A DNA stretch of 59,907 nucleotides from a virus (Duplodnaviria; Caudoviricetes), in IMG/VR virus record IMGVR_UViG_3300030103_004214, positions 1 through 59,907 of that record; one strand, written 5' to 3'. Position numbers and translations under genes: made by a program. Within the stretch, counting starts at the first letter, position 1. Each line of letters begins with the position of its first letter. Shown in pieces: positions 2,179 to 13,234 of this stretch. A model generated the notes under the pieces. The model was not told the DNA's origin. It searched no databases and saw only the letters and a program-made list of their open reading frames with translations.

Positions 2179-4372
2179 ATGCCACCAATTCAATAAATTC
2201 TCCAAGTATTTTCTTATTCATCTTCTTATTCTTAAGACTTTTAACAAATGCTCTTTTGATATCTGCCTTTGAGTCAGACTTAGGTTCAAACTCTGCATCG
2301 TTTGCAAGTGCCTGTGAAGCAATACCAAAGTAAGTATGATAACCCGCATCTTTAATTGCAAATGACCTTTCCTTTCTCCATCTAAGCATTGTCTTTTCAA
2401 CTAACTCATTACCATATCCAAGATATCTGCGAGCGAATTGACCACCATCACGACTAGACATGATACGAATACCAATGAAGTTCATATTTGGTAAACGTTC
2501 TCTAAGATTACGAAGAAGAACATCAGTCTGATTACGGTCATCATAGTAATGACCTTCACAACGATATGTTGTTCCTAATTGTCTATCACGAATAAAACAA
2601 CTCTCACCAAAATATTGTGTTCCCATATATGGTTCATCATCCCAATCTCTATGAACTTCCTTATTAAATCTCATTGGTTGACCCTCACCATCAGTCAGAA
2701 CAACACATTGAACTTTCTCAACTCCAGTTTCTTTCTTGAACTTAGGAAGTATTTGACGAAGTGCTATCATTGTTTCATTTAATGGTGTTCCTGATAGTCT
2801 GAAACCCAAAGGTGCTTGCATCCAAGCATTATTATATTTCCAATCAGATGATGCACCACATCTGAAGATATTAAGCATTTGACGGTCTAAATCTCTAGTT
2901 TTTGTGGTATGTGTAAAGAAGTTTAGAAGATGAAAATTATCAGGTATTTGTATTTCTTTATCCTTTAATTCAGCAACTCTTGGTTTATCTGTATTTGGAT
3001 AATCAACAGTAAATGCATAGACTTCATAAGGTATCTGAACTTTACGACAGAACCAAATCAAATTGTATAGTTGCTTCAATGTATCTAGTATTACATTGTT
3101 CATTGAACCAGACCAATCAAGAATGAATACTAGTCCGTGGTTTTTGCCATCGGGCACCACTGTGATTTTCTTGAAAATATCTTCATTGAACTTATATGTA
3201 TGAAGAGATTTGGTATCCAAGACACCAGTACGACTAGTAGAAGAGCGAGCATAAGCTCCTGCAGATTTGCGTCTCTCGAATTCTTTGACAAGATAGTTTA
3301 CCTCTTTCTGTGCATCTCTCTTGAATTTATAATACATCTTATCAACTTCACTGTAAATTGGTTCATCACTTGGACTCGTATTAAATCTTTCATGATACTC
3401 TTTTTCATATCTGATTTTTCTTTCTTCACAATCTACCCAATTTTTATCCATTGATTGATGAACTTTCTCATTATCAACGATAATATTTTCTAAAATTAAC
3501 TCAGGTATTTCGACATATTGACTTTCTCTAGTCTGAGTATTTGTAAGATTTTTAAGTGCTTCGCTCAATGACTTCATTGTTTCTGAGTCAGGTTCTTCAC
3601 TCCACTCTTCCTTAACATTATCATTAAGATTGAAATCCTCAAAGTCTTCAATTACTGGTTCGTTAGTTGCCTGTGGTGTGCCACTATCAATATCTGCTTC
3701 AGTCTCTTGTTGTGTCTCTTGACCGTCACCATCGGTCTCACCAGATGTTGAACCTATCATATCATCAAGTCTGATTTCATCACTCTGCATCTCAGATAAT
3801 CTATCCATCTCTTCTTTCTCTTCTGCTTTTTTCTGCTTACAGTATGCGTATAACTCTTCTGCAACATCAAGTGCTTCCTCGAATGTTTCAATCTTGTCAA
3901 TCTTGTTTACAAAGTATTGCTCTTCCTCATTAAAATCAATATCAACAAAGTTACCAATCTTGAAGTGTATATTAATACGGTCTGCAAGGTTCATATCATT
4001 TACATCTTTGTCTTTTATCTCAAAGAAATCAATATCAGTTAATTCATTGTATGCATTAAAAAATGTCTTAGATGTTCCCTCATATCTACGCTTAATAAGT
4101 TTTTCAATTCTTGCATCTTCAACAATATTGACAAATGCATGAGATGTAACTCTACCACCTTCTCTCCAATCCACATCAGGTGTGTAGAGAGCGTGTCCGA
4201 CCTCATGACATACAAGCATATCAAATACACCTTCACTTGCTTTATCCCAGTTAGGGAGTGTTAGAACACGACTGTGAACATCGAACTGTGCAGTCTCTAC
4301 ATTCTTATGCTCTACAACTAAATCCTCTGTTGCAAGTAGTTTAGCGAGTGTTGATTTGATTTCGTGTTTCAT
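2177..4372 (-). CDS. CobT-like protein: N-terminal HExxH metallopeptidase-like domain plus C-terminal vWA domain
   Basis: HEVGH and NIVEDARIE; acidic linker; MIDAS DWSGS, GTPL, VLTDG. Likely partner of the CobS-like ATPase. Confidence 0.85.
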   Translation of the reverse strand: MKHEIKSTLAKLLATEDLVVEHKNVETAQFDVHSRVLTLPNWDKASEGVFDMLVCHEVGHALYTPDVDWREGGRVTSHAFVNIVEDARIEKLIKRRYEGTSKTFFNAYNELTDIDFFEIKDKDVNDMNLADRINIHFKIGNFVDIDFNEEEQYFVNKIDKIETFEEALDVAEELYAYCKQKKAEEKEEMDRLSEMQSDEIRLDDMIGSTSGETDGDGQETQQETEADIDSGTPQATNEPVIEDFEDFNLNDNVKEEWSEEPDSETMKSLSEALKNLTNTQTRESQYVEIPELILENIIVDNEKVHQSMDKNWVDCEERKIRYEKEYHERFNTSPSDEPIYSEVDKMYYKFKRDAQKEVNYLVKEFERRKSAGAYARSSTSRTGVLDTKSLHTYKFNEDIFKKITVVPDGKNHGLVFILDWSGSMNNVILDTLKQLYNLIWFCRKVQIPYEVYAFTVDYPNTDKPRVAELKDKEIQIPDNFHLLNFFTHTTKTRDLDRQMLNIFRCGASSDWKYNNAWMQAPLGFRLSGTPLNETMIALRQILPKFKKETGVEKVQCVVLTDGEGQPMRFNKEVHRDWDDEPYMGTQYFGESCFIRDRQLGTTYRCEGHYYDDRNQTDVLLRNLRERLPNMNFIGIRIMSSRDGGQFARRYLGYGNELVEKTMLRWRKERSFAIKDAGYHTYFGIASQALANDAEFEPKSDSKADIKRAFVKSLKNKKMNKKILGEFIELVA

Positions 4373-10508: not shown

Positions 10509-10799
10509 TTACCTTCTGGGATCGTCAAAATCAATCCAGTGTATACAGTCAACAGGACAAGTATCGATTGCTTCTTGTATTAATTCAGGACTATCACCAT
10601 CTTGTCGGATAGCACGACTTTTACCTCTTTCCTCTGCAACAATAAAAGTATTTGATGCAACGTGAACACAATATTGACAACCAATACATTCTTCTTCATC
10701 TACCCATACTGCTTTCTCACACAACTCTCCACCAAGACAAGGTTCATAACCTGTTATCTCAGTGTTATCAAATATCTCAAATGCAATACGAGGATCAAT
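10509..10799 (-). CDS. Cyanobacterial-type 3Fe-4S/4Fe-4S ferredoxin; start uncertain (ATT 10799 or TTG 10724)
   Basis: VWVDEEECIGCQYCVHVA...AIDTCPVDCIHW. The frame stays open upstream through GYEPCLGGEL, which resembles the N-terminus of picocyanobacterial homologues. Confidence 0.85.
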   Translation of the reverse strand: MDPRIAFEIFDNTEITGYEPCLGGELCEKAVWVDEEECIGCQYCVHVASNTFIVAEERGKSRAIRQDGDSPELIQEAIDTCPVDCIHWIDFDDPRR

Positions 10800-10931: not shown

Positions 10932-11195
10932 TTATTTAAAGAAGTCGCTATATTCTCCCGTAGGATCTCCAAACACTCTAATTTTTTTGTATTTATTATC
11001 TTTCCTTCTTTGTTTCAATGCGTCTACACCTGTTGAAAAGTCACTTTTATTTACTTTTGTAGATGGTGTATCTGGTGTTGATGGTTTAGATGGTGTTTTA
11101 CCTTTAGGTTTTAATAAATTATATAAAGCGACACCACCAAGACCTAAACCCACCATTGTCTTTAGACCTTCATTAAATTGTTTAAAAGTTTTCAT
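10932..11195 (-). CDS. Hypothetical protein with MKTFKQFNE leader and Gly-rich hydrophobic segment
   Basis: 87-aa ORF; ATGA overlap with the upstream gene. Confidence 0.75.
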   Translation of the reverse strand: MKTFKQFNEGLKTMVGLGLGGVALYNLLKPKGKTPSKPSTPDTPSTKVNKSDFSTGVDALKQRRKDNKYKKIRVFGDPTGEYSDFFK

Positions 11196-11680
11196 GTTCC
11201 TAATCTAATTTTTGCGTCTTTTGGTTTGAATGCTAGTGTTGTATTTATAGGTTTTTCTTTATTTTTTATCGGTGTTGTTTCAATTTTATTTTTATTAGTT
11301 TTATTGTTTGTCGGTGCTGTCTCAATTTTATTTTTATTAGTTTTATTTTTTGCTATTGTAGTATTACTTAGTGTATCAGATACAAAATTTCTTCCATCTG
11401 GACCTACAAATTTATTAGCAGTAGATAAACCCTTAACACCCTTTGCTATTTTATCACTTTTACTTACAAATTTAGCACCTTGAAATATTTTACCACCAGG
11501 TACTGCACCTAAAGCACTTAGTGCAGCTCTACCATAATTACCCTTTCTTGCTTGCTTAACAGCATCATATGCAGAATATGCAGCTAATCCTGCACCTATT
11601 ACTTTTCCTGCAACTGCAAGAGCAGGTAATCCTTCATTTAATTTATTGGTTTCCTGTTGAAACTCATTAAATGTTTTCAT
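11192..11680 (-). CDS. Hypothetical protein with MKTFNEFQQE leader, Gly/Ala-rich hydrophobic helices and a tandem repeat
   Basis: 162-aa ORF; TAATG coupling. Confidence 0.75.
   Translation of the reverse strand: MKTFNEFQQETNKLNEGLPALAVAGKVIGAGLAAYSAYDAVKQARKGNYGRAALSALGAVPGGKIFQGAKFVSKSDKIAKGVKGLSTANKFVGPDGRNFVSDTLSNTTIAKNKTNKNKIETAPTNNKTNKNKIETTPIKNKEKPINTTLAFKPKDAKIRLGT
11269..11352. repeat. 42-bp tandem repeat x2 encoding (N/K)NKTNKNKIET(A/T)P
   Basis: Copies at 11269-11310 and 11311-11352 differ at three positions. Confidence 0.9.
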
Positions 11681-11865: not shown

Positions 11866-11895
11866 TTCTAAATAAATTAGTTTTATCAACAATTA

Positions 11896-12693
11896 ATGAC
11901 AAGTTTGATCGACCCAAAAAAGTATACGAAGACACTTGACCTATTAAGGTCATTTTTTTTGTCTAAAGGTTTCTTAGAAGTTCATACTCAGAACCGTTTA
12001 AGTATACTTGCTGCTTGTGAAGACCCAGAGACAGTAGCAACATACACATACAACGGTGAAATCTGGCCGTTACCTCAAACAGGACAAATGTGGTTAGAAT
12101 ATGAACTCCTGAAAAATCCTGATGTTCCTGGTTTCTTTTGCCTATCTACTTCCTATCGACAAGAACCTAATCCAGTTGCAGGTAGACACGAAGTAATATT
12201 TCCAATGTTTGAGTTTGAGATGCATGGTGGTATAGAAGAACTTAAAAAGATGGAAATTGAATTATGTAAACATCTTGGATTACCAGATTTAGAAATTGAA
12301 ACATATGATGATTGGACAAATATGTTCAATACAAAAGAATTAGATCATGATCACGAGGATAAAATTGGTTATGGTATGATTACTGACTTCCCAGAATTTA
12401 CATCTCCTTTCTGGAATATGTCGAGAAACGACGATGGTAAGACTAGTCGAAAGATTGACGTAATCTTAAATGGTATGGAAACAATTGGTAGTGCAGAACG
12501 TAGCACTGACAAAAAACAGATGCGTGATACCTTCCATACGATATCTGATGGCGAATATGCTAACTTACTTTACAAATTATTTGGTAAGGAAAGAGTTGAA
12601 AAAGAACTTGAAGAGTTCTTAGAGTTTGATTTCTTCCCTCGCAGTGGTGGTGGGATAGGAGTTACACGCATAATGCAAGCGATCCCTGATTAG
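11896..12693 (+). CDS. Class II (Asp/Asn/Lys-type) aminoacyl-tRNA synthetase catalytic-core protein lacking the anticodon-binding domain
   Basis: Motif 1 LRSFFLSKGFLEVHT; LPQTGQMWLE; motif 2 SYRQE...RHEVIFPMFEFEM; PFW; ETIGSAER; motif 3 PRSGGGIGVTR. Only 265 aa, with no N-terminal OB-fold. Confidence 0.88.
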   Translation: MTSLIDPKKYTKTLDLLRSFFLSKGFLEVHTQNRLSILAACEDPETVATYTYNGEIWPLPQTGQMWLEYELLKNPDVPGFFCLSTSYRQEPNPVAGRHEVIFPMFEFEMHGGIEELKKMEIELCKHLGLPDLEIETYDDWTNMFNTKELDHDHEDKIGYGMITDFPEFTSPFWNMSRNDDGKTSRKIDVILNGMETIGSAERSTDKKQMRDTFHTISDGEYANLLYKLFGKERVEKELEEFLEFDFFPRSGGGIGVTRIMQAIPD

Positions 12694-12698
12694 GGATC
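12681..12698 (+). other. Perfect 7-bp hairpin over the synthetase-like stop codon, directly 5' of the tRNA
   Basis: GATCCCT-GATT-AGGGATC. Confidence 0.7.
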
Positions 12699-12702
12699 TC
12701 AA

Positions 12703-12788
12703 TGTGGGGTGGCGAAACTGGTAAACGCACTAGTCTGTTTAACTAGCGTTCCTGGCGGGACTTGTAGGTTCGACTCCTACCCTCACAG
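12703..12788 (+). tRNA. Atypical tRNA, anticodon GTT (Asn), long variable arm, no encoded CCA
   Basis: Acceptor TGTGGGG/CCTCACA + G73; D arm GCG-AAACTGGTAAA-CGC; anticodon stem CTAGT/ACTAG with loop CTGTTTA; 17-nt variable region with stem GTTCC/GGGAC; T arm GTAGG-TTCGACT-CCTAC. Confidence 0.92.
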
Positions 12789-12802
12789 TAAAAAGTTATT
12801 TA

Positions 12803-13234
12803 TTAATTATAACCTGCTTGGAACTTATTCCATTCAATTGCATTTTTGATTTGATAAGTTCGATTTGATACTGCACGAATTATTTCTTCTAAAAATTTAA
12901 GCATTACATCATAGTATTTGATTTTCATATCAATCTTATTCATCTTTGCATCTGCATCTAAATGCCTTTGGATTGCATCTTTCTCACGAACCTTGTAAGG
13001 AAATGGTTCCTCCACATATGCTTCTGCAGATGCTTTTCCAGTATAATAATTATATCTTTCTAATCTAACTTTGGCATAACTTTCCCGTGCCTTCTCCCGT
13101 AACAAAGTAATTGTATTGTAGAGTGTATAATACTTTGAGTGAAGTTGTGGTATTTTAAGTGATTCATCATGTAGATTATCAGGATCGATTTGAGAGTCTC
13201 TCTCCCACATCTCCTGAATTTTTTCAAGATCCAT
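12803..13234 (-). CDS. uvsY: Recombination mediator UvsY
   Basis: D..ID..NL..ES..IP.LHSKY; YYTGKA; R.YQIKNAIEW.KF.AG. Confidence 0.93.
   Translation of the reverse strand: MDLEKIQEMWERDSQIDPDNLHDESLKIPQLHSKYYTLYNTITLLREKARESYAKVRLERYNYYTGKASAEAYVEEPFPYKVREKDAIQRHLDADAKMNKIDMKIKYYDVMLKFLEEIIRAVSNRTYQIKNAIEWNKFQAGYN

Follow-up and report, generated by a model that had tools for sequence, protein, structure and literature searches.

A long-arm tRNA(GUU) of marine T4-like phages and its probable partner, a stand-alone class IIb synthetase-like enzyme

Results

An unusual tRNA gene directly follows a synthetase-like gene

The analysed stretch of DNA (hereafter the window; 59,907 nucleotides, IMG/VR record IMGVR_UViG_3300030103_004214) is a fragment of a T4-like cyanophage, its nearest named relatives being the Prochlorococcus phages P-SSM2, P-SSM5 and P-SSM7. 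It carries a tRNA gene with anticodon GUU and a long variable arm, preceded by a gene, here called X, whose product resembles the catalytic core of asparaginyl- and aspartyl-tRNA synthetases (AsnRS and AspRS; Table 1). The original prediction, made from the letters of the window, described the tRNA as a chimera with asparagine identity elements on a leucine/serine-type body; its interpretation is partly supported by the results below, but it overlooked gene X, which ends 9 nt upstream.

Table 1. Features of the X–tRNA(GUU) locus in the window
Feature	Position	Strand	Description
gene X	11896..12693	+	265-aa stand-alone class IIb core (AsnRS/AspRS-like); stop codon 12691-12693
spacer	12694..12702	+	9 nt, from X stop codon to tRNA base 1
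tRNA gene	12703..12788	+	86 nt; ARAGORN, RF00005, covariation in 44 distinct relatives
acceptor stem	12703-12709 / 12781-12787	+	discriminator G73 at 12788
D arm	12712..12728	+	stem 12712-12714 / 12726-12728; 11-nt loop AAACUGGUAAA with A14, A15, G18, G19
anticodon arm	12730..12746	+	5-bp stem, 7-nt loop CUGUUUA; GUU = 12737-12739, U37 = 12740
variable region	12747..12763	+	17 nt: unpaired C, 5-bp stem with UGGC loop, UU
T arm	12764..12780	+	GUAGG / CCUAC, loop UUCGACU

This gene is the sole tRNA reported by ARAGORN in the 59.9-kb window, as Asn (gtt), and it matches the Rfam family RF00005 over its whole length with 50.6 bits against a gathering score of 29 (E 6.5e-8, whole window), the only Rfam match in the window at the gathering threshold. 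Reading the sequence letters against the cmscan alignment gives an acceptor stem of 7 bp with one G.U pair (U1-A72, G2-C71, U3-A70, G4-C69, G5.U68, G6-C67, G7-C66), a D stem of only 3 bp (G10-C25, C11-G24, G12-C23) with A13 and A22 unpaired, an anticodon stem CUAGU/ACUAG closing the loop C32 U33 G34 U35 U36 U37 A38, and a variable-arm stem pairing G-C, U-A, U.G, C-G and C-G; the U preceding the T stem is able to form A15:U48. All features listed in the original prediction are present, i.e., GUU, U1-A72, G73, the 3-bp D stem, A15/U48, the 17-nt arm with its 5-bp stem and U37, and its statement that all stems pair fully is correct provided that the two G.U pairs are allowed. The gene does not encode CCA, the letters directly 3' of it being TAAAAAG. 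Acceptor and T stems of 7 bp and 5 bp set it apart from tRNA-Sec and allo-tRNAs, whose geometry is defined as 8/5, 9/4, 8/4 or 9/3. Single-sequence energy folding does not return a cloverleaf (z-score -1.17), so that the evidence for the structure comes from the covariance model and from covariation in the relatives.

The tRNA belongs to a family under structural selection

Relatives of the tRNA were collected by way of X. Searching IMG/VR for relatives of X gave at least 598 pattern-matched stretches, at least 593 of which encode one; the best 80, together with five GenBank loci and the window, form a first sample of 86 sources, whose 77 tRNA copies, the closest relatives, reduce to 44 distinct sequences. 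A second sample of 80 further loci was anchored on the 63%-identical X of the marine contig L104, and pooling the two gave 92 distinct family tRNAs; because the family model was used to fit the second alignment, its pair counts, but not its loop letters, may be biased.

In the 44 distinct sequences, the four canonical stems contain standard pairs in every cell (880/880), and 17 of the 20 pairs have changed on both sides, including all five of the anticodon stem, four of five in the T stem and two of three in the D stem (G-C/A-U and C-G/U-A). The covariation score is 0.571 as compared with 0.164 in shuffles, none of 500 shuffles scoring as high, while slid alignment registers pair in only 37-49% of cells. 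The core positions U8, A14, G18G19 and the T-loop are invariant, in keeping with membership of RF00005. The original prediction had proposed a search of viromes for the same fold and for covariation, and both were found. By this pattern of compensatory change, the long-arm tRNA(GUU) is a functional RNA under strong structural selection.

The failure of energy folding noted above might be taken as a sign of a decaying pseudogene or of an annotation artefact. Such a reading is refuted by the covariation, i.e., by perfect pairing with compensatory changes in 44 sequences, and by the invariant functional positions that all 92 members share, and we regard it as practically out of the question. The earlier judgement that the gene is neither a pseudogene nor a one-off mutation is therefore upheld, and relatives carrying a leucine, serine or tyrosine anticodon, named there as evidence to the contrary, did not occur among the 92, all of which keep GUU. 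Taken on its conservation, this is a genuine phage tRNA maintained by selection.

Some long-arm members are misread or missed by ARAGORN (L019, L061, L078, L162, L042, L095, L097, L099), which reports four-base anticodons, 'tRNA-Asp (atc)' or nothing. As the family covariance model finds all of these, routine annotation will undercount this tRNA.

Acceptor end and anticodon are fixed while positions 33 and 37 drift

Across the 92 family members, the anticodon triplet is invariant (G34, U35 and U36 each in 92/92), and the acceptor end nearly so, with U1 in 92, A72 in 91 and G73 in 92. In the passages of Giege and Eriani (2023, PMC9976931) on these systems, bacterial asparagine identity comprises G73, G34U35U36 and a modified A37, and the amidotransferase is described as needing U1-A72 and as being repelled by G1-C72 and by an extra D-loop base (the latter also in PMC2330236). 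Measured against those passages, what is invariant in the family coincides exactly with the asparagine and transamidation set minus A37.

The rest of the anticodon loop is variable. Position 32 is C in 54 members and U in 38; position 33 is U in 74, C in 13, A in four and G in one, U33 being missing in 18/92; position 37 is U in 77, C in three, G in eight and A in four; and position 38 is A in 54, with C and G in 19 each. U37, which the original prediction had singled out, is thus typical of the family without being universal; among the 44 closest relatives it occurs in 43, the remaining one having C. Ordinary tRNAs in the same loci, in contrast, have both U33 and A37 in 10/10 cases, and the Ile, Arg and Leu tRNAs of P-SSM7-type phages are also canonical at both positions. 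This loss of U33 and avoidance of A37 beside canonical tRNAs in the same genomes favours a protein as reader of the loop.

The length of the variable region lies between 5 and 39 nt. In 83 members it forms a long arm, with about 4 to more than 10 bp in the stem, and in nine it is a short loop of 5-7 nt, eight of these with G37. On the alignments, therefore, the family is defined by its acceptor end, its anticodon triplet, a special D arm and the avoidance of A37, a particular arm not being included.

With canonical type I tRNA-Asn(GUU) the window tRNA shares GUU, G73 and U1-A72, and its loop differs from CUGUUAA only at position 37; it lacks, however, A37 and the type I body (4-bp D stem, 4-5-nt variable loop). 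The family as a whole departs from tRNA-Asn in its 3-bp D stem, its enlarged D loop, the lack of conservation of U33 and its constant place behind X, to which the window copy adds the 17-nt arm and U37. The long variable arm, the 3-bp D stem and A15:U48 are held in common with the bacterial type II tRNAs (Leu, Ser, Tyr), from which the family nevertheless differs by G73 where Leu and Tyr have A73, by A72 where Ser has C72, by a foreign anticodon and by an arm without constraint on its length. Outside the family, the family model scores highest, with 50-61 bits, on ordinary tRNA-Leu genes, and the earlier description of asparagine identity on a leucine/serine-type body is accurate. G73 is moreover listed as an antideterminant for LeuRS and TyrRS in the relevant part of PMC9976931.

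The long arm might suggest charging by the seryl-tRNA synthetase (SerRS) of the host, by which serine (or another amino acid) would be inserted at AAY codons, an idea already raised in the original prediction. The bacterial serine set given in the corresponding part of PMC9976931 consists of G73, C72, G2-C71, R4-Y69, C11-G24, a long arm and G30-C40, and the window copy has six of these seven (G73, G2-C71, G4-C69, C11-G24, G30-C40 and the long arm). The missing one is C72, replaced by A72 in 91/92 members, and the others vary among the 44 closest relatives: G2-C71 becomes C-G in four, C2-G71 being itself listed there as a SerRS antideterminant, C11-G24 becomes U-A in nine and G30-C40 becomes C-G in four. 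Nine of the 92 members lack the long arm altogether, and a proteome-wide change of asparagine to serine would harm the phage. With C72 missing and the serine determinants varying, serine charging is not what selection maintains; the argument from the long arm loses much of its force, and we consider this alternative very improbable.

The tRNA depends on X, and not the reverse

The tRNA begins within about 15 nt of the X open reading frame (ORF) in most relatives, the gap reaching about 90 nt in L008, L027 and L038. In the first sample, a complete tRNA lies directly 3' of X in 77 of 86 sources; the other nine comprise six contigs that end early, two huge phages and one locus (L076) with room for a tRNA but none. 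In the second sample, the tRNA is found in 69 of 80 loci, ten have room but none, and one locus is cut. A reverse scan of IMG/VR used a D-loop-plus-anticodon pattern, which required GTTY and is therefore uninformative on anticodon variation; it matched at least 120 stretches, 78 loci were analysed, and 58 of these had at least 900 nt upstream. X was present upstream in 57 of these 58 matches, the exception being an incomplete tRNA.

The distribution in cellular genomes is different. Of 357 stretches with a pattern match in a prokaryote genome collection, 312 encode a relative of X; among the 80 loci used, only seven carry the family tRNA (L095-L099, L104, L162), all of them contigs of marine metagenome-assembled genomes (MAGs) with an X that is 62-83% identical, and at least one (L098) with a phage-type family B DNA polymerase. 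The remaining 73 have X but no tRNA and belong mostly to the Patescibacteria (candidate phyla radiation, CPR), with further cases in Aureispira, Chitinophagales, Moheibacter, Pasteurellaceae and alphaproteobacteria. X also stands alone in some phages: a genome of 235,761 bp, estimated complete, encodes X and has no match to the family tRNA model, and two huge phages, LR756501 and LR756508, have an X of 45-51% identity and no family tRNA, their top model matches being ordinary tRNA-Leu genes (LR756508 carries a canonical 74-nt tRNA-Asn). The dependence is one-way, the tRNA never being seen without X and X often being found without the tRNA, i.e., it runs from the tRNA to X. The two genes occur together in three different contexts (P-SSM2/P-SSM5, P-SSM7 and the window) and are a mobile two-gene cassette. 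We consider a functional partnership of the tRNA with X likely.

These data also bear on the possibility that the tRNA is a decoder charged by the host, either by AsnRS or by an AspRS of the non-discriminating type (ND-AspRS) together with the amidotransferase GatCAB, and that its altered positions 33, 37 and 38 and its foreign body evade anticodon nucleases or the need for N6-threonylcarbamoyladenosine (t6A), X being adjacent by hitch-hiking in the mobile cassette. Consistent with this, variation is confined to loop positions outside the fixed anticodon, and the asparagine identity set and U1-A72 are otherwise intact. However, an independent decoder should sometimes lack X, and none does in the 57 informative cases; position 37 is not diversifying in the cyanophage clade, where it is a fixed pyrimidine (U or C in 44/44); and the loss of purine 37 and of U33 costs decoding. 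Precedents exist in phage tRNAs whose anticodon-loop changes are predicted, in the passages concerned, to confer nuclease resistance (van den Berg 2023, PMC10264068; Azam 2024, PMC11555353). Like the family tRNAs, those are phage-encoded and differ from the host loop outside the anticodon; as described there, however, they are otherwise ordinary and not tied to an enzyme, whereas here the body class is foreign and purine 37 has been given up. Modified A37 being a determinant of bacterial asparagine identity in the part of PMC9976931 cited above, host AsnRS may also charge such a tRNA poorly. Altogether, we think a hardened decoder of this kind improbable.

X is a stand-alone class IIb core

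The product of X matches Pfam PF00152 (class II synthetases for D, K and N) with an E-value of 2.3e-15, residues 12-262 aligning with profile positions 27-291 of 308. It has no N-terminal OB-fold (oligonucleotide/oligosaccharide-binding fold) anticodon-binding domain and aligns only to catalytic residues, e.g. 138-379 of the 435-aa AsnRS of Brugia. Its AlphaFold2 model (pLDDT 96.5) has AspRS/AsnRS catalytic domains as top structural matches, with template-modelling scores of 0.72-0.80 on the query and only 0.41-0.50 on the targets, which have a further domain at the N-terminus. The top matches of a profile built from 47 family members are the Brugia AsnRS (2e-14) and archaeal AspRS (2e-13), archaeal asparagine synthetase A reaching only 9e-7.

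In an alignment of nine family sequences, motif 2 (R88/E90/R97-H98), D188, E195, the stretch G-S-A-x-R202 and motif 3 (R258) are invariant, and across close and mid-distance relatives no change occurs in the catalytic arginines, in the acidic metal ligands or in the G-S-A-x-R stretch. X is thus, judging from its conserved residues, probably an active adenylate-forming enzyme for an Asx-like (aspartate- or asparagine-like) substrate. A HMMER search over 1.84 billion cluster representatives returned only 687 relatives at E<=1e-3 and 174 at E<=1e-30, mostly of 260-300 aa. Beside the IMG/VR stretches mentioned above, at least 8000 clusters of relatives at 90% identity were counted.

All ten NCBIfam matches of X lie far under their cut-offs (best 26.4 bits versus 368), asnS TIGR00457 among them (20.1 bits versus 342.6). 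The protein falls into PHROG 29758 (E 1.1e-165), labelled 'unknown function'; cellular members are named 'amino acid--tRNA ligase-related protein' by NCBI, and a protein-atlas look-up returned 'putative tRNA ligase' clusters of viruses only.

As a core without an anticodon-binding domain, X resembles the truncated class II paralogues archaeal asparagine synthetase A (3p8t) and GenX/EpmA (3a5z), both of which are among its sequence and fold matches. HisZ and the GluRS paralogue that glutamylates queuosine are further truncated class II-type paralogues with other jobs. To our knowledge, every characterised truncated class II paralogue that lacks this domain has a non-canonical job, and we know of none with a tRNA gene of its own.

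Membership of the known paralogue families was rejected on scores, both for asparagine synthetase A (NF005055, 23.7 bits versus a cut-off of 389) and for a GenX/EpmA-type enzyme (NF006828, 25 bits versus 264). A purely AsnA-like activity was rejected as the general role of X as well: genomes with AsnA use AsnRS and not GatCAB according to the relevant part of Sheppard (2008, PMC2330236), while CPR genomes with X have gatB and no asnS above cut-off, so that X is not AsnA-like in behaviour.

Since X has no anticodon-binding domain and the anticodon triplet is nevertheless invariant, the triplet should have another reader, namely the ribosome or an OB-fold Asp/Asn synthetase. Alternatively, the anticodon loop could itself be the target of X, no internal element of the partner other than G34U35U36 being fully invariant, much as a truncated GluRS paralogue glutamylates tRNA-Asp at queuosine-34; or the tRNA could be a regulatory ligand of X, or an element that processes or stabilises its mRNA. 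A 475-nt RNA-library contig of a relative, spanning window positions 12569-12847, runs from the 3' part of X through the tRNA as a common precursor would, and a 148-nt contig is identical to positions 11879-12026. Four RNA-library runs hold contigs from relatives, at small shares of the sampled words; such libraries may hold DNA and the contigs show no ends, strand or expression level, so that together they hint only weakly that X and the tRNA are co-transcribed. Against a target in the loop, the invariance of U1-A72 and G73 points to the acceptor end, and queuosine insertion needs U33, which is missing in 18 of the 92 members; a processing signal alone would not need a conserved anticodon and discriminator. 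We rate these alternatives, taken together, as rather improbable.

Some relatives of X are linked to pyrimidine-pathway enzymes

Several relatives of X are fused to enzymes of pyrimidine synthesis or lie beside them. P0124 (661 aa) is a dihydroorotate dehydrogenase fused to an X that is 59% identical to that of the window, and P0157 (588 aa) is an X fused to orotidine monophosphate (OMP) decarboxylase. In Pasteurellaceae, pyrD is followed by X, the gene for OMP decarboxylase and that for a short phosphoribosyltransferase; alphaproteobacterial contigs show two arrangements, one of X with pyrF, a phosphoribosyltransferase gene and a DHO_dh-like gene, the other of X with a DHO_dh-like gene and the gene for phosphoribosyl pyrophosphate (PRPP) synthetase; and pyrD adjoins X in Chitinophagales and Aureispira. 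By tblastn, 15 of the 80 genome-collection loci have a gene for PyrD, PyrF, a phosphoribosyltransferase, a DHO_dh-like protein or PRPP synthetase within 3 kb of X, and in L102, L106, L111, L112, L113, L126 and L166 X lies in a pyrD/pyrF/phosphoribosyltransferase cluster.

The genomes concerned also appear to lack early enzymes of the pathway. None of eight X-bearing genomes has pyrB above cut-off, as opposed to 14/14 control genomes, and none has pyrC_multi, present in 11/14 controls, or pyrC_dimer, although seven of the eight are MAGs, for which the absence of pyrB and pyrC is not proven. X may, on this gene content, catalyse an undescribed early step of pyrimidine synthesis.

Among the phages, the cassette-bearing P-SSM2 also carries pyrE, as recorded in the part of Sullivan (2005, PMC1079782) concerned. 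In the neighbourhoods of the cassette in 199 viral sources (1.37 Mb), however, the only match to a pyr-type gene is a PRPP synthetase in L204, and the pyrimidine link hence comes from cellular and fused relatives and not from the cyanophage surroundings. The L204 gene (about 2940-3920) encodes a homologue 31% identical to the PRPP synthetase of L126 and follows the family tRNA by at most about 120 nt.

Other contexts point elsewhere. In Moheibacter and in L162, a 335-kb contig binned as Neomarinimicrobiota, X lies between genes for phosphoenolpyruvate (PEP) carboxykinase and an aminotransferase; in L162 and L170 the flanking pair is PEP carboxykinase with an aminotransferase of class I/II, the tRNA accompanies X in L162, and both flanking enzymes belong to steps leading to aspartate. 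In four CPR genomes (G002, G003, G004 and G006, with loci L145, L135, L134 and L103), X is present at 59-63% identity, no asnS is found above cut-off, and each genome has one archaeal-type AspRS-like gene and gatB. OMP decarboxylase is absent from all four, and the complete one also lacks DHO_dh; the neighbours of X in CPR genomes (Dus, NUDIX, DNA polymerase III tau and a permease) are uninformative. Formation of dihydroorotate was accordingly rejected as a universal function of X, and no single function fits all contexts.

The CPR genomes bring in a further alternative, in which X is a minimal AsnRS or AspRS that reads the acceptor end (U1-A72, G73) and forms a private orthogonal pair with the tRNA, charging it for decoding of AAC and AAU, for example to bypass a host with indirect Asn-tRNA formation or to supply an AT-rich genome. 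X could be the AsnRS of the four CPR genomes; its class II catalytic residues are invariant in the nine-sequence alignment, its closest solved relatives are true AsnRS and AspRS, and its family motif 'pQtgQmeLE' aligns with 'tQSSQLYLE' of AsnRS, where archaeal AspRS has K-Q. The invariant acceptor end could be read by a catalytic core alone, the invariance of GUU follows from decoding, and within the closest clade the linkage is tight both ways. On the other hand, a decoder would hardly lose U33 in 18/92 members and keep A37 in only 4/92 beside ordinary tRNAs that are canonical in 10/10 cases, the PyrD and PyrF fusions and pyr-gene neighbourhoods make no sense for a translation synthetase, and Phocoenobacter has a normal asnS (698 bits) besides X. 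The truncated class II paralogues (AS-AR, 3p8t, and GenX, 3a5z) have, in addition, non-canonical jobs. We regard a private pair as unlikely, though it is the strongest of the alternatives.

Discussion

A candidate role as Asx carrier

Our preferred but tentative proposal, which we would still call possible and short of probable, is that the tRNA is a dedicated Asx carrier for X and not a codon-supply tRNA. From the fold, the invariant positions, the linkage and the class and fusions of X we infer a charger, a loaded amino acid, an action of X on the charged end and poor decoding. G34U35U36 and G73 would be a label read by a protein, namely the anticodon-binding domain of the Asp/Asn-type synthetase of the host, which would load the tRNA with aspartate or asparagine; the near-absence of A37, and with it of t6A37, would favour aspartylation, t6A37 being reported to block aspartylation of yeast tRNA-Asn in the passage of PMC9976931 on that system. 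Through U1-A72 and G73, the acceptor end would be offered to a class IIb active site, to the amidotransferase or to both. The aminoacylated 3' end would then be the substrate of X, which would carry out an ATP-dependent chemistry on the Asx moiety, feeding asparagine and/or pyrimidine (dihydroorotate-side) metabolism. Little of the tRNA would be spent on the ribosome, positions 33 and 37 not being kept as a decoder needs them. Among the three roles offered by the original prediction—a modification-independent or nuclease-resistant decoder, a tRNA inserting another amino acid and a non-ribosomal aminoacyl donor or decoy—the evidence leans to the donor, with the triplet 34-36 and the acceptor end fixed while 33 and 37 drift.

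Known systems offer partial parallels to such a carrier. Staphylococcal cell-wall tRNA-Gly is a non-proteinogenic aminoacyl donor outside translation; by analogy, the family tRNA may likewise serve an enzyme in place of the ribosome and have its decoder features relaxed, although the amino-acid system and the partner are others and the cassette contains no gene for cell-wall or peptide synthesis. The ND-AspRS and GatCAB pathway is a precedent for tRNA as a scaffold of amino-acid chemistry and, on the identity data in PMC9976931 and PMC2330236, reads the positions that are invariant in the family, the synthetase recognising anticodon and G73 and the amidotransferase U1-A72. It differs in that no GatCAB is encoded nearby, that the partner is a class IIb core and not an amidotransferase, and that the enlarged D loop is a possible antideterminant.

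Several observations weigh against the carrier. Codon reading explains the invariance of GUU equally well, the loop of 7 nt and the anticodon stem of 5 bp are entirely canonical, and U33 is retained in 74 of 92 members. X operates in many phages and cells that lack this tRNA, and its chemistry may need no tRNA. The pyrimidine link is not universal, and in the CPR genomes X could be a minimal AsnRS; the RNA-library evidence is weak. An amidotransferase step is doubtful, an extra D-loop base being an antideterminant in the parts of PMC9976931 and PMC2330236 cited above and the tRNA having an enlarged D loop and a long arm. Finally, G10 is A in 16 of the 44 closest relatives, where aspartate identity, as given in the same part of PMC9976931, includes G10 beside G73, G34U35C36 and C38.

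A more specific version of the carrier proposal is that X, as an enzyme derived from AsnRS, converts Asp- or Asn-tRNA(GUU) in an ATP-dependent reaction towards dihydroorotate, or towards asparagine as its precursor, replacing aspartate carbamoyltransferase and dihydroorotase, with marine phages using a non-decoding carrier to avoid competition with translation. We hold this version to be improbable. If it were true, the conversion of tRNA-bound Asx by X would constitute a tRNA-dependent branch of pyrimidine biosynthesis.

Novelty and significance

The GenBank records of P-SSM2, P-SSM5 and P-SSM7 annotate a 'tRNA ligase' beside a 'tRNA-Asn' and nothing further, and a table in Sullivan (2010, PMC3037559) lists 'tRNA ligase' (T4-GC 194) for two phages. 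A literature search, supplements excluded, retrieved no paper on the type II body or the loop of tRNA(GUU) or on its pairing with X, and nothing relevant on a synthetase-like enzyme in pyrimidine synthesis.

In textbook terms, only the tRNAs for Leu, Ser, Tyr and Sec have long variable arms, and nearly all decoders have U33 and a purine at position 37. An abundant family of ocean-phage tRNAs breaks all three rules while its asparagine identity set (minus A37) stays intact. Should it serve as a carrier, it would be a new and phage-encoded instance of a tRNA that acts as metabolic handle; should it be a decoder, charged by a mini-synthetase that does not see the anticodon, the two would form an orthogonal pair occurring in nature, which would interest engineers of the genetic code. 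In either case it opens a direct experimental way into an enzyme family that is uncharacterised and widespread in CPR bacteria and in genomes without pyrB and pyrC, and the question can be tested with the cultured phages P-SSM2, P-SSM5 and P-SSM7 on Prochlorococcus NATL1A/NATL2A.

Genomic setting and further observations

The stretch is near-identical in many marine DNA runs. In the window, the ORFs neighbouring the tRNA encode a UvsY-like mediator (12803-13234, minus strand), a tail-tube/gp3-like protein, the major head protein and a UvsW-type helicase. A scan for promoters and terminators around the cassette gave results no better than shuffles.

A 73-nt tRNA-Leu(UAA) with A73 and a short variable loop is present in P-SSM7 (L003, 2371-2443) and in L053 (2870-2942). 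This P-SSM7-type tRNA combines a leucine anticodon with a type I body, and is in this sense a mirror image of the tRNA(GUU) situated 0.9 kb downstream.

Three small ORFs on the minus strand of the window have no PHROG match, at E 1e-5 for the first of them. The first (10509-10724) encodes 71 aa with CxxCxxC...C spacing and has the look of a small ferredoxin; the other two are adjacent (10932-11195 and 11192-11680), are rich in Gly, Lys and Asn, both start with MKTF.(E/Q)F and are possibly paralogues.

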